This document shows, piece after piece, positions 15,718 to 62,126 of a DNA stretch of 64,000 nt; the stretch's first letter is position 1, and the number at the start of each line of letters is the position of its first letter. The stretch covers positions 5,234-69,233 of the forward strand of contig JAZRFJ010000028.1 of assembly GCA_045661305.1 (NCBI GenBank). The letters are read 5' to 3'. Below the pieces are notes generated by a model that was not told where the DNA came from, searched no databases, and saw only the letters and a program-made list of their open reading frames with translations. The DNA is from Clostridia bacterium (GTDB taxonomy: Bacteria > Bacillota > Clostridia > UMGS1840). The position numbers were made by a program, and so were the translations under genes.

Positions 15718-15734
15718 TTCGGAAACTTTCGACA
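15718..15734 (-). promoter_or_regulatory. tandem Spo0A-box-like heptamers (TGTCGAA agt TTCCGAA) in the leader of 15415-15705
   Basis: The minus strand reads TGTCGAA (perfect 0A box), a 3-bp spacer, then TTCCGAA (6/7 to TGNCGAA). This is the same 7+3+7 geometry as the tandem 0A boxes of B. subtilis abrB. Confidence 0.45.
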
Positions 15735-15740
15735 TTCTTT

Positions 15741-15936
15741 ATATAAAGACTGTATAATCCGGATGCCAAGCATTTTTTATGAATTGACAACTCCGTTGTC
15801 ATGAATTGGCTCTGCCATGAATTCTCACTGACGCTCCATGAATTGAATTGCCTTAATGCACGAAGTGCAATTCATGAGCTGTAAGGCTCAATTCATGAAA
15901 CCTTTGATTTCAATTCATGCCGCAGGCAATTCATTG
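15741..15936 (+). repeat. repeat family R1, copy A: promoter-like module plus an array of short hairpins punctuated by CATGAATT (x4) then AATTCATG (x4)
   Basis: Direct-repeat partner at 18241-18438. Octamers start at 15779, 15801, 15817, 15838 and at 15869, 15890, 15912, 15928. Each inter-octamer segment is a small palindrome. The left end carries TGTATAAT on plus and TTGGCA-N17-TTATAT on minus. Confidence 0.85.
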
Positions 15937-15955
15937 CAGTCACAGACCGCATACG

Positions 15956-16123
15956 CTCGTGCCAAGTCAGGCGAACAGTGAATAATAGGACCTACTATTT
16001 TCTGTTCTTGTTTTCCTAAACAAAATCCATCAGAACCCGCAGGAATATTAGATTTTCCTGCCCGATATGTAAATATTTATTATCGGCAAACTAATCTTTT
16101 AAATTGTATGGACTTGACACAAG
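15956..16123. repeat. repeat family R2, copy A: 168-bp unit bounded by 13-bp terminal inverted repeats (MITE-like, switch-like, or structured RNA)
   Basis: CTCGTGCCAAGTC ... GACTTGACACAAG. Both ends are conserved with copy B and the centre has diverged apart from a covarying hairpin at 16039-16061. The unit ends 20 nt from the stop codon of 16143-16679. Confidence 0.8.
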
Positions 16124-16142
16124 TATGTAAACCCACTAAAAA

Positions 16143-16679
16143 CTATAAATTAAGTTTTCCTTTCATCTGTTTTGCATAAGGAATATCATCTATGCATATT
16201 TCAACAAACTGTATTACTGCATTGGCATAATCATTCCAATCTGCATCCTCATCTAAAATGACTTCATCAACGCCTAAATACTGATAACCACTTTTACAAG
16301 GCAACAACAAAGACACATACTTGCCTTGCATATCATCCCAACCAAGATGTATATATCTTTTTCCTTTTATTGCTTTTTTGAAACCTTTAATGCCATAATA
16401 TTTTTCTTCAAAAGTATTTTTACCCGAAAAATCATTGTATGATTCGTGCTGATTCCATTGTTCAATACCATATTTAATTTTTTCAGCTAGTTCTTCTTTG
16501 GTATATGGGCTTTTTAATTCTATAGGGTAATACGCTGTACAAAACCACGGCTCGTTTATTATTGTTCCATCCGCTAATTTTTGAGGTTCGTTGGTTTCAC
16601 TTTGCGGAAAAATAACGATGTCTTTTTCCTCATTCACATAAATATCAATCCATCTGAATTCTTCAAAATTAACTTTCAT
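16143..16679 (-). CDS. hypothetical cytoplasmic protein (acidic, about 178 aa)
   Basis: ORF 16143-16721 in the track. I prefer the start at MKVNFEEF (16679) because of the RBS GAAAGGTG. No family recognised with confidence. Size and acidity are compatible with an immunity-type protein, but that is a guess. Confidence 0.6.
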   Translation of the reverse strand: MKVNFEEFRWIDIYVNEEKDIVIFPQSETNEPQKLADGTIINEPWFCTAYYPIELKSPYTKEELAEKIKYGIEQWNQHESYNDFSGKNTFEEKYYGIKGFKKAIKGKRYIHLGWDDMQGKYVSLLLPCKSGYQYLGVDEVILDEDADWNDYANAVIQFVEICIDDIPYAKQMKGKLNL

Positions 16680-16711
16680 TTTTCCACACCTTTCTACATC
16701 ATTATATACCA

Positions 16712-16728
16712 TTCGACACAATTCTTAC
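16712..16728 (-). promoter_or_regulatory. Spo0A-box-like site (GTAAGAA ttg TGTCGAA) upstream of 16143-16679
   Basis: Perfect TGTCGAA on minus (16718-16712) with a degenerate partner 3 bp upstream. TGGTATATAAT (extended -10-like) follows immediately downstream. Confidence 0.4.
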
Positions 16729-16913
16729 TCGTGTCAAGTCAGGAGAACAGTGAATAATAGGAACTACTATTTTTGCCCTATTTTTTCAACTGTTTTTCTT
16801 TTAACACTTTTCCCTAGAACCCGTGAGAACACTGGATTTTCTCGCATTCGATAGTATATGTAAATATCAAAATCGGCAAACTAATCTTTTAAATTGTATG
16901 GACTTGACACGAG
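16728..16913. repeat. repeat family R2, copy B: 186-bp unit with perfect 13-bp terminal inverted repeats
   Basis: CTCGTGTCAAGTC (16728-16740) and GACTTGACACGAG (16901-16913) are exact reverse complements. Internal hairpin at 16823-16845. The unit ends 20 nt from the stop codon of 16933-17541. Confidence 0.85.
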
Positions 16914-16932
16914 TAACATGAATTTTAATTCT

Positions 16933-17541
16933 TCAATACAAGGATACGGGCTCCCAACCATAATGCTTGATGTAATTAATATCTAATCCGTTATGCTCTG
17001 CGTACATTCGCATGAATTCTATCTCTGCTTGATCGTTATCGTGATGGGTCATAAATTTATCATAAAGACCTGTATAGCCTTTTGTAAACTCTTTGATACT
17101 TTCAGCATAGTGCTCTCCGTCACCAGCTTTCTCAACAGATACAACAACATATCCGTTTTCTGTTTCTTTTAAATGAAAACAAGCAGGCATCTCTCCGCCA
17201 CCACCCTGCACCATTGTATCCCCCTCTAAGCGATAACCACCCGACCAGAAATTACCAAACACCAAATGCTCTCCATCACGGTCCGTCTCTTCTAAAATCA
17301 CAAACGAAGGAATCCAAACATCACCATAGCTTGCGTGACGCTCTGCTTCTTCATTAAACCAGTCACAAATAGCTGCAATAGCAAGGTTATCACCCACATA
17401 TACAAACGAGGGCATCTGTGTACCATCCTTTTGAGTAATATTAAATTGTGGTCCTCCGGAAGCAAGCGGTGGTTTTTCTGTCTTTTGACCGCAGCTGCAC
17501 AAAAGAAAAACAATCAAAAATAACACTAATATTTTTTTCAT
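16933..17541 (-). CDS. hypothetical lipoprotein
   Basis: 202 aa. Signal peptide with lipobox (LFLIVFLLCSC, Cys at the cleavage site). No recognised domain. Confidence 0.7.
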   Translation of the reverse strand: MKKILVLFLIVFLLCSCGQKTEKPPLASGGPQFNITQKDGTQMPSFVYVGDNLAIAAICDWFNEEAERHASYGDVWIPSFVILEETDRDGEHLVFGNFWSGGYRLEGDTMVQGGGGEMPACFHLKETENGYVVVSVEKAGDGEHYAESIKEFTKGYTGLYDKFMTHHDNDQAEIEFMRMYAEHNGLDINYIKHYGWEPVSLY

Positions 17542-17627
17542 AAAAACACTTCCTTTATATTATTTTCATATATCATATCAAAATAAGTGTGCTATAAACC
17601 TGACTTTTCTATCATTATTCAATAAAC

Positions 17628-17644
17628 TTCGACACAATTCGACT
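17628..17644 (-). promoter_or_regulatory. tandem Spo0A-box-like heptamers (AGTCGAA ttg TGTCGAA) upstream of the lipoprotein gene
   Basis: The minus strand reads CTTGACA aaa GTCGAA ttg TGTCGAA. This is a perfect box plus a 6/7 box with a 3-bp spacer, directly downstream of a TTGACA hexamer. Confidence 0.45.
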
Positions 17645-17729
17645 TTTGTCAAGACCGGCTAAAAAAATCACATCTGTATAAAAGCAAGCATATAATATAC
17701 AAAAAAGAAAAATTTTGTAGGTGATTTAT

Positions 17730-18212
17730 ATGTTTAACAATTATATACCTAATTTTAAGCAAAGACCTTATGCGTTTGCAAAAATAAATGGAAGTAATGA
17801 TTACCCAAATATAAACGGGATTGCATACTTTTATAAAGTAGAATCAGGCGTAATAGTTTCCATACAACTAAAAGGTCTTCCTGTATCAGATGATATTTGT
17901 AAAAAACCAATATTTGCAGTTCATATCCACAGTGGTGGCAGTTGCACAGGCAACAGCACCGACCCTTTCGCAAACGCCATGACACACTATAATCCAAACA
18001 ATTGCAATCACCCCTACCATGCAGGCGACTTACCGCCTATATTTGGTGCGAACGGGATTGGTTTCTCTGCATTTTTAACAAATCGATTTTCTCCTGAAGA
18101 GATAATAGGAAAAACTATTATAATCCATTCCGCACCCGATGACTTTACAACTCAACCATCAGGAAATTCAGGTATGAAAATTGCTTGCGGTGTGATTTCT
18201 TCTGTATATTAG
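17730..18212 (+). CDS. sodC: Cu/Zn superoxide dismutase family protein, no signal peptide
   Basis: FAVHIHSGGSC, HYNP, NHPYHAGDLP and IIIHSAPDD give the full set of His/Asp metal ligands. I prefer the start at 17730 (RBS AGGTGA) over the GTG at 17721. Confidence 0.8.
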   Translation: MFNNYIPNFKQRPYAFAKINGSNDYPNINGIAYFYKVESGVIVSIQLKGLPVSDDICKKPIFAVHIHSGGSCTGNSTDPFANAMTHYNPNNCNHPYHAGDLPPIFGANGIGFSAFLTNRFSPEEIIGKTIIIHSAPDDFTTQPSGNSGMKIACGVISSVY

Positions 18213-18240
18213 GCGATTTTATCTTGATATACGCTTTTTG

Positions 18241-18438
18241 ATATAAAGACTGTATAATCCGGATTCCAAGCTTGTTAAATGAATTGACAACTGTCGTTGT
18301 CATGAATTGGCTACGCCATGAATTCTCGCTTTGCTCCATGAATTGAATTGCCTTTTAAATGCACGAAGTGCAATTCATGAGTCGCAAGACTCAATTCATG
18401 AAATCTTTGATTTCAATTTATGCCGAAGGCAATTCATT
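18241..18438 (+). repeat. repeat family R1, copy B
   Basis: Collinear with 15741-15936 and in the same orientation. Differences cluster in hairpin loops or are compensated in stems. Lies 29 nt downstream of the sodC stop and is followed by an 11-bp perfect hairpin at 18438-18462. Confidence 0.85.
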
Positions 18439-18514
18439 GATTTCAAGCTTTGCTTGAAATCATTATATCACCTTTGCAATAAATTGTCAATTTTTTTAAC
18501 AAAATATACACAAT

Positions 18515-18550
18515 AATGACACTCACAAAATTTATGAGTGTCATTTTATA
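18515..18550 (+). terminator. rho-independent terminator (plus-strand sense, possibly bidirectional)
   Basis: AATGACACTCA / TGAGTGTCATT stem followed by TTTATAT. Confidence 0.6.
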
Positions 18551-18564
18551 TAGATTATTAAAAC

Positions 18565-18813
18565 CTAATTCAATTCTGAAATTTTATCTATACAGCATTT
18601 ACATATTTTTTTGTTTTCAAAGTCGATAAGGTCCTCGTCTGCCCCGCAAAATAAACAAGAAATTTCATATTTTTTTATGATAACTTCTCCGTCATTTCCG
18701 ATAAAAAATTCCAAAACATCTTCCTCCGAAACATCAAGTGCTTTTCTAATCGGCTTTGGTATAAGAAGTCTTCCAAGCGGGTCGATTTGCTTTGTTATTC
18801 CTGTTGCTTTCAT
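18565..18813 (-). CDS. AbrB/MazE/SpoVT-family DNA-binding protein fused to a C-terminal CxxC...CxxC zinc-ribbon
   Basis: The N-terminus MKATGITKQIDPLGRLLIPKPIRKAL is a typical swapped-hairpin AbrB fold signature. C-terminus has CLFCG...CKCC. Start at 18813 with RBS GGAGGAAG. Confidence 0.8.
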   Translation of the reverse strand: MKATGITKQIDPLGRLLIPKPIRKALDVSEEDVLEFFIGNDGEVIIKKYEISCLFCGADEDLIDFENKKICKCCIDKISELN

Positions 18814-18865
18814 ACTTCTTCCTCCATTTTTATACATTTGTTTTCTGATTCTTTATTTTTTCTAC

Positions 18866-18894
18866 ATTATATCATGGAAAAAGAGCGATGTCAA
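18866..18894 (-). promoter_or_regulatory. near-consensus sigma-A promoter of the AbrB-like gene
   Basis: Minus strand TTGACA, 17 nt, TATAAT, with a TGa extended -10. A perfect TGTCGAA heptamer lies further upstream at 18940-18946 (minus sense). Confidence 0.65.
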
Positions 18895-18951
18895 GGATTT
18901 TGGCAAAAAAACCCAAAATATGTAATTTTTGCCACATATTTCGACAAATTT

Positions 18952-19731
18952 CTACTTTACAACTGTCTTTAAGTATGTCAAGGTTTTTGGGACAAAGTCA
19001 ATTTGCGTCAAAAAAAGTCTTTCCGAGAACGAAAAAAGCTCGTTGTGGAAAAGCTCACCGAGATTAAATTTCAAAAAAGAACTAAGCTCAGCCTCAGTTA
19101 TATACTTTATACATTTATAAGCATCAAAGCTTATTTTTTTTATGTGGTCACCCGAAACACTCATACACTCGTCACAAGAAAGAATGTTTTCAATGAAATT
19201 ATAAAAAACAAATTCGCTGTCATTAAACTTCTTCTGGCAGAACATACACTCCGACATTTCGGGAACAACACCCAGAATAACACAAAGTCTTATTTCAAAC
19301 GCAGACTTTATAAGAAGGGACGACTTAACATTATTTGAAAGTGCATATAAAGAGTTGAGAGCAAGCCTTAATATTTCTTCGTCAGGCTGTTCATAAGTAC
19401 CTGTCAACCTAACTGCCTCCAAAATATAGCAACCAACGGCAAACGCAGTAATATCCTTTTTAATATCAAAAAAATTAGTAATTATATTACATTCCCTTAC
19501 AGTATAAATCTGCTTGTTGCGTGTTAAGATATAATCTCCGTAGCAAAACATATTTATTCCTGCCATATCTTTACGCTTTAAACTTTTTGCACCGGGTGCT
19601 TTTGCGTTTATAAGTCCATATTCATCTGTATAGACAGTAAGCATTTTGTCGCCCTCGTTAATCGCAGTTTCACCGACAACAATCCCTTTTGCAGTTAAAA
19701 AGTCCAAGAAAGCACCCCCATTATGAAACAA
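18952..19731 (-). CDS. recO: DNA repair protein RecO
   Basis: 259 aa. N-terminal OB-fold pattern (KGIVVGETAINEGDKMLTVYTDEYGLINAKAPGAKS) and C-terminal CxxC...CxxC zinc motif (CMFC...CDEC). The start codon is uncertain because the TTG at 19731 sits inside the T-tract of the plsY terminator. Confidence 0.8.
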   Translation of the reverse strand: MFHNGGAFLDFLTAKGIVVGETAINEGDKMLTVYTDEYGLINAKAPGAKSLKRKDMAGINMFCYGDYILTRNKQIYTVRECNIITNFFDIKKDITAFAVGCYILEAVRLTGTYEQPDEEILRLALNSLYALSNNVKSSLLIKSAFEIRLCVILGVVPEMSECMFCQKKFNDSEFVFYNFIENILSCDECMSVSGDHIKKISFDAYKCIKYITEAELSSFLKFNLGELFHNELFSFSERLFLTQIDFVPKTLTYLKTVVK

Positions 19732-19752
19732 AAGGACGGAAATATCCGTCCT
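19725..19752 (-). terminator. hairpin plus T-tract immediately after plsY
   Basis: AGGACGGA aata TCCGTCCT (19733-19752) overlaps the plsY stop codon and is followed on the minus strand by TTTTGTTT. Confidence 0.55.
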
Positions 19753-20365
19753 ATTTTTTCTTAAACGAAATTTTATTTTCAGTTTTAGAAAGTAATCTTT
19801 TTATATTTTGATGATGACGCACTATAATCTGAAGTGCAAGAATAATTGTTGCAATTACTATAAGTACAATATGCTCCGAGCCTTTACAGAAAAACCATAC
19901 CCAGAAAGGTGCAGAAAAAGCTGCTAAAATTGAGCCGAGTGACACAAACTTTGATAAAGCGATAACTATAACACCTGTCAAAAATACGCATAGTCCTGCA
20001 AGCGGACTGAAGCAAAATACTGCTCCGCACGAAACGGTAACGCCTTTTCCGCCCTTAAATCCAAAATATACAGGATAGTTATGACCTAAGCTTGCAGTAA
20101 TTGCAGCAATATACGAAGTAGGTAAATCACGCGTAAATAAATATGCAACACCGTATGCCGCAACAGCTTTGAATGTATCCATTATAAGAACTATAACAGC
20201 AGGAAGTGTCCCTAAAGTACGAAGTGTATTCGTAGCTCCTGCATTTTTACTTCCATGCTCTCTTACATCAACTTTATAAAAAATCTTACCTATAATTATC
20301 GAAAAGTTAAGACTTCCGAACAAATAACCTACCAAAGCGGCAATAACATATAATAAATATTTCAT
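19751..20365 (-). CDS. plsY: glycerol-3-phosphate acyltransferase PlsY
   Basis: 204 aa membrane protein with GSKNAGATN and GHNYPVYFGFKGGKG motifs. Confidence 0.92.
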   Translation of the reverse strand: MKYLLYVIAALVGYLFGSLNFSIIIGKIFYKVDVREHGSKNAGATNTLRTLGTLPAVIVLIMDTFKAVAAYGVAYLFTRDLPTSYIAAITASLGHNYPVYFGFKGGKGVTVSCGAVFCFSPLAGLCVFLTGVIVIALSKFVSLGSILAAFSAPFWVWFFCKGSEHIVLIVIATIILALQIIVRHHQNIKRLLSKTENKISFKKK

Positions 20366-20380
20366 AGCATAAAGTCTCCT

Positions 20381-21712
20381 TTACAGCTTTTTCTTTTCGT
20401 TTCTTTCACGGATATAGAACTTTATAGGTGTTCCTGTATAATCAAATGCACTTCTTATCCTGTTTTCAAGATATCTTTCATAAGAAAAGTGCATCAATCT
20501 TACATCGTTTACAAATATTACAAACTGAGGGGGAGTAATATCTGATTGAACTCCGTATAAAATTTTAAGTCTTCTTCCTTTATCCGTAGGCGGCTGTACT
20601 CTTGCAGTTGCATCTGCAATGAGGTCATTTAACATACCTGTTGTAATTCTTCTTTTTGAATTTTCATAAACGCGGTCAATCATTTCAAAAATGCCTTCTA
20701 CTCTCTGTCCTGTCTTTGCTGAAATAAACATTGACGGAGCGTACATCATATATGGAAATTCTTCCATTACTTCTTTTTTCATTTCGTCCATCGTGTGAGT
20801 ATTTTTTTCAACGATATCCCATTTGTTTATAACAAATATTGAAGCTTTACCCTCGTTATGAGCATATCCTGCAATCTTTGTATCCTGTTCTGTCGGACCT
20901 TCAGTTCCGTCAATAAGAATAAGACAAACATCTGCTCTTTCAACAGCAGTATATGAGCGTAAAACAGAATATTTTTCAACCTTTTCGTTAACTCTGCTTT
21001 TTCTTCTTATTCCCGCAGTATCAATAAACAAATATTTTCTTCCGTCTTTTTCGACATAGCTGTCGATTGCATCTCTCGTTGTTCCGGGAATATTTGAAAC
21101 AATCATTCTTTCTTCGCCCAAAATACAGTTTACCAAAGAAGATTTGCCTGCATTTGGTTTTCCTACGACAGCAACCTTTATTATGTCTTCTTCCTCCTCG
21201 GAAATATCATCTGACGGAAAGCCTTTTACCACTTCGTCAAGAAGGTCACCTGTTCCCATGCCCTGAATAGCACTTATAGCAACAGGCTCACCCATTCCAA
21301 GATTGAAAAATTCGTAATATTCCATAGGTGGCTCACCCGGAGAATCGCACTTATTAACAGCAAGGACTATCGGTTTTTTAGATTTCATAAGTATCTTTGC
21401 AACTTCCTCATCATCAGGAAGAAGTCCTGTGCGAACATCTGTTAAAAATATAATTACATCAGCAGTTTCAATAGCTATTTCCGCCTGCGTACGCATCATA
21501 GCTGTTATTTCATCATCGCTGTCAGGCTCAATACCGCCTGTGTCAATAAGAAGAAAGGCTTTGTCAAGCCACTGTGCCTCGGACATTATTCTGTCTCTTG
21601 TTACACCAGGAGTATCTTCAACTATTGAAACCCTCTTCCCCACTATTCTGTTAAAAAGCTGAGATTTACCCACATTTGGGCGTCCTACTATTGCAACTAT
21701 CGGTTTTGACAT
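20381..21712 (-). CDS. der: ribosome biogenesis GTPase Der (EngA)
   Basis: Two tandem GTPase domains (GRPNVGKS and GKPNAGKS P-loops) plus a KH-like C-terminus. ATG at 21712 is preferred to the TTG at 21721. Confidence 0.95.
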   Translation of the reverse strand: MSKPIVAIVGRPNVGKSQLFNRIVGKRVSIVEDTPGVTRDRIMSEAQWLDKAFLLIDTGGIEPDSDDEITAMMRTQAEIAIETADVIIFLTDVRTGLLPDDEEVAKILMKSKKPIVLAVNKCDSPGEPPMEYYEFFNLGMGEPVAISAIQGMGTGDLLDEVVKGFPSDDISEEEEDIIKVAVVGKPNAGKSSLVNCILGEERMIVSNIPGTTRDAIDSYVEKDGRKYLFIDTAGIRRKSRVNEKVEKYSVLRSYTAVERADVCLILIDGTEGPTEQDTKIAGYAHNEGKASIFVINKWDIVEKNTHTMDEMKKEVMEEFPYMMYAPSMFISAKTGQRVEGIFEMIDRVYENSKRRITTGMLNDLIADATARVQPPTDKGRRLKILYGVQSDITPPQFVIFVNDVRLMHFSYERYLENRIRSAFDYTGTPIKFYIRERNEKKKL

Positions 21713-59727: not shown

Positions 59728-60396
59728 ATGTTCAAACATGAAAAACAGCTTTTTCACCCTGTTTCAGTTGAAAGACCAAACCCACAGTATGCCGCACTTT
59801 TGCAGGAACAGCTTGGAGGTGCAAACGGCGAGCTTAAAGCTGCTATGCAGTATATGTCACAAAGCTTCAGAATAAAGGACCCTGAAATTAAAGACTTATT
59901 TCTTGATATAGCAGCAGAAGAACTTGGTCATATGGAAATGGTCGCACAAACAATTAACCTTTTAAACGGACATGATGTAAACGCAGGTGATGTTCCCGCA
60001 GGTGAAATTCAATCACATGTGCTTTTGGGACTTAACCCAGGGCTTATAAATGCGTCAGGTTATTCATGGACAGGTGATTATGTATCAGTAACAGGTGATT
60101 TATGTGCTGACTTACTTTCAAATATTGCATCGGAACAGCGCGCCAAGGTTGTATATGAATATCTTTACAGACAGATAGACGATAAAAAAGTGCGTGAAAC
60201 AATAGATTTTCTCCTTAACCGTGAAGAAGCACACAACGCAATGTTCCGCGAAGCCTTTAACAAAGTGCAGAATACAGGCTCAAATCAGGATTTCGGAACA
60301 ACAAAAGCTGCCAGAATGTACTTTAGTATGTCGGAGCCATCTCCAAAAGACACACCGTTTCCAAAAACTGATGTTGAAAAACCTATGTTTCATTAA
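59728..60396 (+). CDS. manganese catalase family protein (CotJC-like)
   Basis: Start at MFKHEKQLFHP (59728, RBS AAAGGAG). GGANGELKAAMQYMSQSF and EELGHMEMV di-Mn ligand motifs. Confidence 0.9.
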   Translation: MFKHEKQLFHPVSVERPNPQYAALLQEQLGGANGELKAAMQYMSQSFRIKDPEIKDLFLDIAAEELGHMEMVAQTINLLNGHDVNAGDVPAGEIQSHVLLGLNPGLINASGYSWTGDYVSVTGDLCADLLSNIASEQRAKVVYEYLYRQIDDKKVRETIDFLLNREEAHNAMFREAFNKVQNTGSNQDFGTTKAARMYFSMSEPSPKDTPFPKTDVEKPMFH

Positions 60397-60438
60397 TATA
60401 AAAAGCCTCTCACACCGAGAGGCTTTTTATATTAATTT

Positions 60439-60867
60439 CTACATTTTTTCGCAACCCTTACATACTTCACAAAGTGCATCGGACACCTCAAAGGAATAAT
60501 CGAGTGATTGCGATAAATCACCCAGAGTAAGCATTCCCACAAGCTCGCTTTCGTTTACAACAGGAAGTCTTCTTACCTTTATATCCGACATAATATCAAA
60601 CGCATCGTCAAGGTCTGTAAACGGTGAAACGGTAGTTACATCTTTAGTCATAATGTCGCTTGCAGATGTATTTTTCACATCTTTCCCCTCACCGATTGCC
60701 CTTAAAACAATATCTCTGTCCGTAATCACACCGCATATATTTCCGTTATCGTCACAAACAGGTATTACACCTACATCGTTTTCACTCATAAGCTTGGCAA
60801 CATGGTAAATGTCAGTATTTTTCCCGACACTAAGAGCAGGCGTTGTCATAATATCCTTTACTTTCAT
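60439..60867 (-). CDS. CBS-pair domain protein with C-terminal CxxCxxC tail
   Basis: 142 aa with two CBS repeats (MTTPALSV...VCDDNG; MTKDVTTV...VVNESE). Tail is CEVCKGCEKM. Confidence 0.85.
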   Translation of the reverse strand: MKVKDIMTTPALSVGKNTDIYHVAKLMSENDVGVIPVCDDNGNICGVITDRDIVLRAIGEGKDVKNTSASDIMTKDVTTVSPFTDLDDAFDIMSDIKVRRLPVVNESELVGMLTLGDLSQSLDYSFEVSDALCEVCKGCEKM

Positions 60868-61056
60868 AATTTCCTCCGTTTTATTTTTTTGTTTTTGGTA
60901 TTATTTTTATAATACTATTTTTTTTCGCCTTTTAAAAAATATTCATAAATAAAAAGCCTTTTTTAATTTCTGTTCGACAAATTTTTTATATTTGTAGAAT
61001 AATTGTATGAAAAAAAATAATAAACACAAAATTTTTGGAAAAACAAGGAATTTGTA

Positions 61057-61085
61057 TTGACGGTTTTTAATTAAAAAAGTATTAT
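61057..61085 (+). promoter_or_regulatory. sigma-A type promoter of the Spo0A_C-like gene
   Basis: TTGACG, 17 nt, TATTAT. It is followed by 2.5 tandem copies of AAAAGTGCA (61099-61122) in the leader. Confidence 0.5.
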
Positions 61086-61141
61086 TAAAGCTGTTTTTAA
61101 AAGTGCAAAAAGTGCAAAAAGTAAAAAAAGAGGTACAAGAG

Positions 61142-61786
61142 ATGTCAAAGCTTTTATTCTGCGAGAATCCTGATTACTACAAAAAAATTGACAAAAGTCT
61201 TTTATGGAGTTATTTTATAACAGACTCATGGGCGGAATGTAAAAAATATATTTCTCTTTATATGCCAAAATCTATAACAATTTCGGAAAATATGGCAGAA
61301 AATATAGATGAGTTAATAAACCATGTAAAAAAAGAATATAAAGACTTTCCGTCTATATTCATATTTTCAAAAGAGCGTATATTATCATCAATAACAGACG
61401 AATTTGGAAAAAGACAAATTCTCCATGCAGATAAAATTCCACTCGAAACTGATAAAATTATAAACAATATTATGCTAAAATACAGCTTTGTTCCAAAGCT
61501 TAAGGGTTATACATATATAAAGCGGGCAATGTATGAGGGCCTTTTGAATGACGGCGCGTATATAAATATCAAAAAAATTTTATATCCGAACATAGCAACA
61601 ATGTATCTGGTAAGCGAGGGTGCAGTAGAACGCGGGATAACCTTTTCAATACTAAAGGCATATGAAAAGAGCGAAGAAATGAAAGAACTTTTCCAAAATT
61701 CTTCTCGTCCGCCCTCTAATCTCGAATTTCTAAAACGGTTTTTCATAGTTGTAAAAGATGACTTGTCTTGTTATACACATAAATAA
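61142..61786 (+). CDS. orphan Spo0A C-terminal (DNA-binding) domain protein with a non-receiver N-terminal half
   Basis: About 214 aa from the ATG at 61142 (RBS AAGAGGTA). The C-terminal half KLKGYTYIKRAMYEGLL...KILYPNIATMYLVSEGAVERGITFSILKAY parallels the Spo0A effector domain pattern (GY.YL..AI...LYP.IA..Y.T....VER.IR.AI). The N-terminal half has no DD...D...K receiver signature. Confidence 0.6.
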   Translation: MSKLLFCENPDYYKKIDKSLLWSYFITDSWAECKKYISLYMPKSITISENMAENIDELINHVKKEYKDFPSIFIFSKERILSSITDEFGKRQILHADKIPLETDKIINNIMLKYSFVPKLKGYTYIKRAMYEGLLNDGAYINIKKILYPNIATMYLVSEGAVERGITFSILKAYEKSEEMKELFQNSSRPPSNLEFLKRFFIVVKDDLSCYTHK

Positions 61787-62126
61787 GTGCGATACAAATA
61801 AAATACCATAAAAAAAAGTAACCTAAGCATATCTGTCCCATAAAATTAAACGGTAAAGACGAATAATCCCATACATCATATTTAAGAATAATATTAAAAA
61901 CAATACCGAATAAAAGCTCAATAAATGTTATAAATAAAGCGCAAAAAAGGCTTTTTATAAATATATTCATATCAGGATAGCTTTTGTTAAAAGCGTATAT
62001 AAATAATGTACATAGCCCTCCTGCAAAGCACATAGTCGGATGGGAATATCCACGCCAGATAATCTCTAAAACGGGGTATATACAAAACCCCCATGTAAAG
62101 GAAATAACTAAATCCAAATTTATCAC
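61743..62126 (-). CDS. small polytopic membrane protein (putative ABC-transporter type IV / CmpB-like family)
   Basis: 127 aa with 4 TM helices and the VWDYSSLPFNFMGQICL motif typical of that family. Confidence 0.65.
   Translation of the reverse strand: MINLDLVISFTWGFCIYPVLEIIWRGYSHPTMCFAGGLCTLFIYAFNKSYPDMNIFIKSLFCALFITFIELLFGIVFNIILKYDVWDYSSLPFNFMGQICLGYFFLWYFICIALIYVYNKTSHLLQL

Follow-up and report, generated by a model that had tools for sequence, protein, structure and literature searches.

Spo0A is normally a single, extremely conserved and phosphorylation-gated master switch. Every spore-former examined to date has a canonical copy (bioRxiv 10.1101/2022.02.25.481979), the canonical aspartyl pocket is made up of residues D10, D11, D56, (T84) and K108 (bioRxiv 10.1101/2022.02.07.479450), and spo0A genes themselves carry upstream 0A boxes of an autoregulatory kind (PMC3485338). 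Aspartate-less receivers (ALRs) are a recognised class (PMC4395418), and for the truncated Spo0A homologues of gut phages it has been proposed that they work without regard to signals from the host phosphorelay (Schwartz et al., mBio 2023, PMC10294663). Our literature searches brought up no account of an ALR whose output is Spo0A_C. Here we analyse a 64,000-nucleotide stretch of DNA from a Clostridia bacterium (contig JAZRFJ010000028.1; hereafter the window), and in it a gene for a Spo0A-like protein of 214 residues (61142-61786 on the plus strand, stop codon included, as defined from the open reading frame, the sequence and its homologues) that no source names and for which the same searches returned no description. 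The explanation that we favour, with a probability of roughly 0.6, is that this protein is a lineage-restricted and compacted Spo0A paralogue in which a decayed receiver is joined to an effector domain, and that it works as a repressor, competitor or autoregulator.

The C-terminal 115 residues are, on strong evidence, a divergent yet intact Spo0A_C helix-turn-helix domain, as the first-pass annotation of this locus had proposed. The domain spans residues 101-214 (61442-61783, plus strand) and is matched by PF08769 (Spo0A_C) over residues 107-198 (61460-61735) with 48.5 bits and an E-value of 9.8e-13 against a gathering cut-off of 25, which the distant family members P0034 and P0036 also pass (P0036 with 53.9 bits). 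When the family profile was compared with the PDB only Spo0A chains were matched (1fc3, E 1.3e-8; 1lq1, E 1.7e-7). An AlphaFold2 (AF2) model of the full-length protein, built from 12 family sequences and with a mean predicted local distance difference test score (pLDDT) of 78.9, reproduces the expected six-helix effector fold with its helix-turn-helix: its C-terminal domain scores 74-96 in 10-residue blocks (92-96 over residues 161-200, 74-77 over 131-160), and Foldseek superposes it on 1lq1 and 1fc3 with template-modelling (TM) scores of 0.79-0.87 on the target, a root-mean-square deviation (rmsd) of 1.8-2.2 A and a probability of 1.00. The signature blocks KGY.YI, LYP.IA, S.VER.I and P(S/T)N..F are held in common with canonical Spo0A, and the recognition helix (about residues 159-176; 61616-61669, plus strand) contains an invariant V162-E163-R164. 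The Spo0A equivalog profile TIGR02875 gives 35 bits, over the C-terminal part only, against a cut-off of 200.

How far this domain has moved from its canonical counterparts becomes apparent when 10 canonical Spo0A C-domains are set against 14 family members at the columns with 90% or more conservation among the canonical proteins. The family keeps K171-G-Y, Y175, I193, K195, L-Y-P (197-199), I-A (201-202), V212-E213-R214, I216, I220, A223, F236, P247, N249 and F252, with the equivalents of E213 and R214 invariant throughout. It has exchanged R177E178 for KR, K203/K204 for T/M, T207/T208 for V/S, R217 for T, S or N, H218 for F, W224 for Y, G227 for S and A257/D258 for F/I, and it carries gaps at 229-230 and 237-239, so that G237-Y238-T239 is deleted. 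E213, R214 and R217 we take to be the base contacts on the recognition helix of B. subtilis Spo0A, in which positions 227-240 together with A257/D258 are presumably needed for transcription activation; neither the sigma-A-activating region nor A257/D258 is conserved in the family. The literature documents a sigma-A activator region in this part of the Spo0A effector domain (PMC4690370). These alignments suggest that DNA binding is probably kept and its specificity possibly shifted, and they make Spo0A-style activation by this protein doubtful. The first-pass annotation had offered two roles for it, that of a phosphorylation-independent activator and that of a competitor at 0A boxes. Because positions invariant in canonical Spo0A within 227-240, and A257/D258, are deleted or replaced, a constitutive activator becomes harder to sustain, and since the sigma-A-contact surface is eroded a repressor, competitor or autoregulator would be more probable than an activator of the Spo0A type.

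The N-terminal domain (residues 1-100; 61142-61441, plus strand) is as conserved as the C-terminal half, with C7, Y13, D17, W22, T27, Y36, Y40, P42, P70, F73 and R91 invariant, and D97-K98-I99-P100 likewise near its end. No canonical receiver is found in it. PF00072 (Response_reg) does not match the whole protein at E<=1, nor the N-terminal halves of any of 12 members out of 12 at E<=10, and the alignment columns that correspond to the aspartyl pocket hold C7-E8-N9, S48, a variable position 76 and H95 (with K98 as a possible alternative), which agrees with the first-pass observation that this half lacks an acidic pocket, a phospho-acceptor Asp and the conserved Lys; the Thr is gone as well. 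Going by these residues, aspartyl-phosphate chemistry in the protein can be dismissed with considerable confidence, and with a receiver decayed beyond phosphorylation the protein would have to be controlled some other way. Set beside an ALR, a recognisable receiver (REC) domain without the phospho-acceptor Asp, the protein has Ser48 in place of that Asp, in a domain that lies below detection by REC profiles.

The same annotation had gone further and called this half a non-receiver; the absence of a canonical receiver stands, and the denial of receiver ancestry most likely does not, given the predicted topology, the structural neighbours, the profile comparison and an Asp in one distant relative. 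AF2, Foldseek and hhalign together point to a probable decayed and truncated pseudo-receiver. The AF2 model of the N-domain alone, from an alignment that includes two distant members, has a pLDDT of 83.8 and a predicted TM score of 0.73, and its predicted topology is (beta-alpha)4 followed by beta5 (beta1 3-6, alpha1 10-14, beta2 24-27, alpha2 30-40, beta3 44-48, alpha3 49-65, beta4 71-75, alpha4 77-91 and beta5 about 91-95). With the full-length model Foldseek finds, after Spo0A_C, neighbours that are mostly REC domains over about 80 columns (rmsd 2.4-3.5 A, E 0.02-0.3), namely PorX, CosR, FixJ, NarL, PmrA, NtrC4, RssB, KdpE, the atypical HP1043 and the CikA pseudo-receiver, and the top match in BFVD is a viral two-domain 'response regulator' (231 columns). 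We then turned to a broad REC profile made of five Spo0A receivers from our searches together with CheY, Spo0F, PhoB, OmpR, NarL, NtrC and B. subtilis Spo0A, against which hhalign aligns the N-domain with a score of 22.3 (P 0.0025) over 69 collinear columns (residues 27-95 of the query on 35-108 of the receiver); all 200 column-shuffled controls stay below it (at most 17.7, with a mean of 10.6 and an sd of 2.05), and reversing the alignment yields 9.5. In this register TDSWAECKKYISLYMPKSITIS pairs with AYNGQECLSLFKEKDPDVLVLD, which places Ser48 on the acceptor Asp56, FPSIFIFS pairs with QPNVIMLT and RQILH with YFILK, and the register recurs in the weaker comparisons with a narrow Spo0A profile and with the PDB receiver 3b2n. 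At the acceptor-equivalent position P0036, which is 29% identical in the N-domain, reads PKMILID and so has an Asp. What comes after beta5 (P100-LETDKIINNIMLKY) already matches helix A of the effector, hence the alpha5 and hinge of canonical Spo0A, some 40 residues, have no counterpart here, and this loss together with shorter loops accounts for a length of 214 residues against the 267-280 of canonical Spo0A.

Several points weigh against receiver ancestry and have to be set beside this evidence. The two AF2 models conflict at residues 77-91, which form a strand in the full-length model and a helix in the isolated domain. For the isolated domain the Foldseek neighbours, mostly REC domains, have E-values of 0.08-0.6 with none <=1e-3, and the receivers are mixed with Rossmann-type folds (DXR, V-ATPase subunit F); as these matches are weak and mixed, structure alone shows a flavodoxin-like fold and does no more than suggest a receiver. 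The broad profile from which the P of 0.0025 derives contains seven sequences from outside our searches, hhalign itself gives the relation to a receiver a probability of just 12%, and its comparison with the narrow, Spo0A-only receiver profile is not significant (E 0.11). Searched with the N-domain profile, the PDB gives nothing significant (best match an arrestin, E 0.11; the receiver 3b2n at E 1.2), and a global hhalign of the family with full-length Spo0A aligns sensibly over the C-domain only. We also discarded a BLASTP extension of canonical Spo0A into this half (77% coverage), a mis-register that lays the stretch from alpha4 to the linker onto residues 33-92. On balance we consider it likely that the N-terminal half is a decayed, truncated receiver, and probable that it derives from the receiver of Spo0A itself, with what likelihood is left falling to an unrelated alpha/beta domain.

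There is strong indication that the gene is real, chromosomal and under selection. We place its start at the ATG at 61142, 8 nt past a GAGG (61130-61133), so that the intergenic stretch upstream runs from 60868 to 61141. In the open reading frame list the frame has 227 residues and begins at a GTG at 61103. Every homologue begins MSKL or MKKL, which corresponds to the ATG at 61142, and calls of 224 and 227 residues that begin inside a repeat of the leader are therefore probably wrong; the public entries for the window protein with these lengths, P0001 (224 residues; it adds 10 residues to the N-terminus of the window protein) and P0039 (227 residues), are probably over-extended. The repeat, whose unit is AAAAGTGCA, supplies in-frame GTG codons ahead of the true start (61103-61141). 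Full-length homologues distinct from the window protein number 11 and are 57-84% identical to it. Pairwise ratios of non-synonymous to synonymous substitution rates are 0.11-0.23 in codons 1-100 and 0.05-0.10 in codons 101-214, the homologue from locus L001 having been left out of this set because an indel disrupts its ungapped codon alignment.

The phyletic survey that the first-pass annotation had called for reveals a tiny family, every genome-assigned member of which comes from an uncultured Oscillospiraceae metagenome-assembled genome (MAG). A word-index search of 5.8 billion clusters returned 11 proteins when the query was the single sequence and 13 family members when it was the profile, and the remaining matches were all canonical Spo0A, reached through the C-domain; the same search with the N-domain alignment gave no match. 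HMMER with an N-domain profile against 1.84 billion cluster representatives gave 7 matches, which comprise the main family, a 210-residue clade (P0034), P0036 (247 residues), P0037, a fragment and a low-complexity false positive. P0043, a cluster-mate of P0034, is 44% identical overall to the window protein. Among GTDB species genomes three loci match, all in uncultured Oscillospiraceae MAGs. Carriers of the gene include assemblies GCA_052835585.1, GCA_052830145.1 and GCA_964410755.1 and the CAZHZL01 and CAZZPN01 MAGs. P0037 (L007 3479-4231) has about 75 N-domain residues, nearest to those of P0036 and reading PKTILID, joined to a C-terminal portion of a Beta-lactamase2 domain. Two HTH_3 genes adjoin it, and either rearrangement of an older gene, of which it would be a remnant, or a chimeric assembly is its probable origin. 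A separate observation concerns P0015-P0028, proteins of Lachnospiraceae type that are otherwise canonical Spo0A: at the end of beta1 they read AADHS where B. subtilis has ADDN, and it appears from their sequences that the first Asp of the acidic pair is replaced; the acceptor motif LLDVVLP is kept.

Upstream of the gene lies a perfect 0A heptamer on the minus strand (TTCGACA, the reverse complement of TGTCGAA; 60973-60979), at a distance of 84 nt from the -35 hexamer and of 169 nt from the ATG. It was already part of the first-pass annotation, and we find that it is conserved across orthologous loci as well. With a one-mismatch box on the plus strand (TGTAGAA, 60993-60999) it forms the inverted pair TTCGACA-N13-TGTAGAA, and downstream of both a consensus scan locates a candidate sigma-A-type promoter (TTGACG-17-TATTAT, 61057-61085, plus strand), both hexamers of which are conserved in the orthologous loci. 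All five main-clade loci (the window, L001, L002, L004 and L011) share the arrangement TTCGACA-N13/14-TGTAGAA, with the box beginning at a constant 84 nt upstream of a -35/-10 pair TTGAC(G/A)-17-TAT(T/C)AT and with a leader that varies in length from 33 to 57 nt. The P0036 locus (L008), in which the upstream gene differs from that of the main clade, has two perfect TTCGACA 10 bp apart and then TTCGCAC, at -142/-132 from the ATG, and these are the sole two perfect matches in that 3-kb contig. For the P0034 and P0006 clades we see one-mismatch boxes only, which are uninformative given the AT-rich DNA. The chance of a single 0A box in the 274-nt spacer is about 3%. Boxes of the 0A type thus accompany the Spo0A-like gene in two independent contexts, and their conservation suggests that the gene is either in the canonical Spo0A regulon or autoregulated. 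The leader repeat that the first-pass annotation had singled out does exist, with 3.6 copies of period 9 (61099-61130, plus strand); it is missing from the orthologues and is probably incidental. No Rfam family matches the leader.

Across the whole window TGTCGAA is not enriched (7 observed against 6.3 expected). Five of the seven heptamers (at 15728, 16712, 17628, 18940 and 21050) fall within 5.3 kb (15728-21056), all on the minus strand, where about 0.5 would be expected. This interval, presumably what the first-pass annotation termed a 'cassette islet', holds two LytR_cpsA_psr genes, two open reading frames without a Pfam match, and genes for a Cu/Zn superoxide dismutase, RecO, PlsY and Der/EngA.

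The gene sits between two conserved neighbours. Divergent from it is a stand-alone CBS-pair protein of 142 residues (60439-60867, minus strand; Pfam CBS, E 2e-32), which recurs in L004, L011, L005 and L006 and beyond which, on the upstream side, lie genes for an Mn-catalase and SpoIIID. Convergent with it is a small membrane protein of 127 residues with PF06541 (ABC_trans_CmpB; 61743-62126, minus strand), and the 44-nt 3' overlap between the two (61743-61786) is as the first-pass annotation gave it and is the same 44 nt in L004, L011 and L002. The main-clade order is SpoIIID, Mn-catalase, CBS(-), Spo0A-like(+), PF06541(-), SecG and RNase R. The P0034/P0043 clade retains the CBS(-)/Spo0A-like(+)/PF06541(-) trio, with an overlap of 11 nt, between outer genes for NrdR, YebC and a helix-turn-helix protein on one side and rpsO and pnp on the other. 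Between these two clades the CBS proteins are 71%, the PF06541 proteins 58% and the Spo0A-like proteins 44% identical, so the Spo0A-like protein is the fast-evolving member of the trio. Two considerations weigh against reading function into this arrangement. At 71% identity of the CBS protein the clades are fairly close, and the synteny may therefore be inherited rather than functional. Moreover, two other clades are without CBS and PF06541 neighbours, P0006 lying beside an unknown gene of 606 residues and an LtaS-type sulfatase and P0036 beside a Mur ligase and a GtrA-like membrane protein, the latter with an overlap of 17 nt.

Some smaller features of the neighbourhood were seen in passing. 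A 3' overlap with a small membrane-protein gene recurs at 61743-61786 in the window (44 nt), L005 7623-7633 (11 nt) and L008 2530-2546 (17 nt), and where convergent genes overlap in this way no terminator is possible between them. The CBS protein ends in a Cys-rich tail, ALCEVCKGCEKM (CxxCxxC), identical in the second-clade homologue, which would point to a site for a metal or for redox chemistry on a module that senses nucleotides. Where the Mn-catalase and CBS genes converge, a GC-rich hairpin between them, aaaaagcctctcacaccgagaggcttttt, at 60355-60516 looks like a shared bidirectional terminator; its Rfam matches (Phe/His leaders, sRNAs) are sub-threshold, and we rejected it as a known RNA.

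Considering these observations we propose that in this paralogue about 95 N-terminal residues would be the remnant of a receiver whose alpha/beta core (beta1-beta5) persists under purifying selection, in which Ser48 would have taken the place of the acceptor Asp and the acidic pair, Thr and Lys would be gone, and from which helix alpha5 and the hinge would have been deleted, so that beta5 leads almost straight into helix A of the effector. Aspartyl phosphorylation could then not switch the protein, DNA binding would be phosphorylation-independent, and the V-E-R recognition helix may bind 0A-like boxes or a related sequence. It would act as a repressor, competitor or autoregulator rather than as an activator that contacts sigma-A, with the pseudo-receiver serving as an input or oligomerisation module, perhaps with the adjacent CBS-pair protein as its partner. 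A more specific version, which we regard as quite unlikely, has the decayed receiver repurposed as a docking or sensing module for the CBS-pair protein, with adenine nucleotides, c-di-AMP or redox state, instead of a phosphorelay, gating the Spo0A-type DNA-binding domain at 0A boxes; if true, some Oscillospiraceae would have a parallel route into their sporulation-initiation regulon that needs no phosphorylation. The proposed paralogue would show, as an experiment of nature, how response regulators can come free of the phosphorelay, and in uncultured Oscillospiraceae of the gut type it could add to the 0A regulon a second layer independent of signals, for instance a brake or a competitor. The N-domain of about 95 residues would also be an unannotated domain family.

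Other explanations fit parts of these data. The protein might be a receiver-less Spo0A effector fused to an unrelated N-domain and acting, without phosphorylation, as a constitutive activator at 0A-box promoters, in the manner of B. subtilis Spo0A deprived of its receiver, which is constitutively active. An intact Spo0A_C domain, the absence of a Response_reg match and an isolated N-domain without a significant structural match are all consistent with this, and the isolated Spo0A DNA-binding domain does bind legitimate targets unphosphorylated (PMC3485338). We nonetheless hold it to be unlikely, since the N-half is collinear with receivers at a score above all shuffles, its neighbours are mostly REC folds, and so strongly conserved an N-domain argues for retained regulation. 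A second possibility is that we are looking at the lineage's only Spo0A, a highly derived orthologue in a lineage where sporulation initiation is being rewired or lost. No canonical spo0A lies within the 64-kb window, and the upstream boxes resemble the autoregulatory ones at spo0A (PMC3485338). Against this, the C-domain is about 27-36% identical to canonical Spo0A proteins that are themselves very similar across classes, and the 35 bits against TIGR02875 are far from its cut-off of 200. Sporulation genes lie close by, SpoIIID within the window and Spore_YtfJ in locus L004, which is syntenic with it, the presence of canonical Spo0A in all known spore-formers (bioRxiv 10.1101/2022.02.25.481979) speaks the same way, and the protein occurs extremely rarely in a family whose members normally possess canonical Spo0A. 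A derived orthologue is accordingly improbable.

A domesticated decoy of phage or mobile-element origin has the documented gut-phage proteins with Spo0A_C and no receiver in its favour (PMC10294663), as well as weak matches to the C-domain in three human faecal phage contigs and in BFVD, and a PHROG match (phrog_37855, E 1.6e-8). These phage matches show 25-32% identity and do not extend beyond the C-domain, and the phage versions have 98-163 residues and lack the N-domain. Pattern search and tblastn of 2.9 million viral contigs found no relative, there were no plasmid matches, PADLOC gave no defence-system match, and the chromosomal housekeeping synteny is stable across species. Without viral or plasmid relatives, and with phage matches confined to the C-domain, we rejected a plasmid or phage origin, and a decoy of this kind seems to us very remote.

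The proposed lineage-restricted paralogue with a probable decayed receiver can now be placed among the systems with which we began. With canonical Spo0A of B. subtilis and C. difficile (TIGR02875) it has in common the effector fold, the order of the two domains and the upstream 0A boxes; canonical Spo0A has the acidic pocket, the acceptor Asp, the Thr and Lys, alpha5, the hinge and 267-280 residues, whereas the Spo0A-like protein has 214 residues, none of the pocket residues and apparently neither alpha5 nor the hinge. It also has other residues at R217/H218 and at the Lys pair that precedes the recognition helix, and its sigma-A region is eroded. Similar to the ALRs and atypical regulators ChxR and HP1043, and to the CikA pseudo-receiver, it would, judging from its predicted fold, combine a receiver-type fold without a phosphorylatable Asp with a DNA-binding output. 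However, ALRs are still detected by the Response_reg profile, and the N-domain described here is not and apparently lacks alpha5. The truncated Spo0A proteins of phages likewise carry a Spo0A effector without a functional receiver, but they consist of the effector only (98-163 residues in BFVD), whereas the Spo0A-like protein is chromosomal, syntenic across species and equipped with an extra conserved domain. Engineered Spo0A from which the receiver has been deleted is comparable in that DNA binding without phosphorylation is expected (PMC3485338). The analogy is imperfect because a conserved domain of regulatory type is still attached here, and with an activation surface that has diverged constitutive activation is not to be assumed. 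The protein is not a phage truncated Spo0A and does not appear to be a recognised ALR, being chromosomal and carrying a conserved domain below receiver-profile detection.

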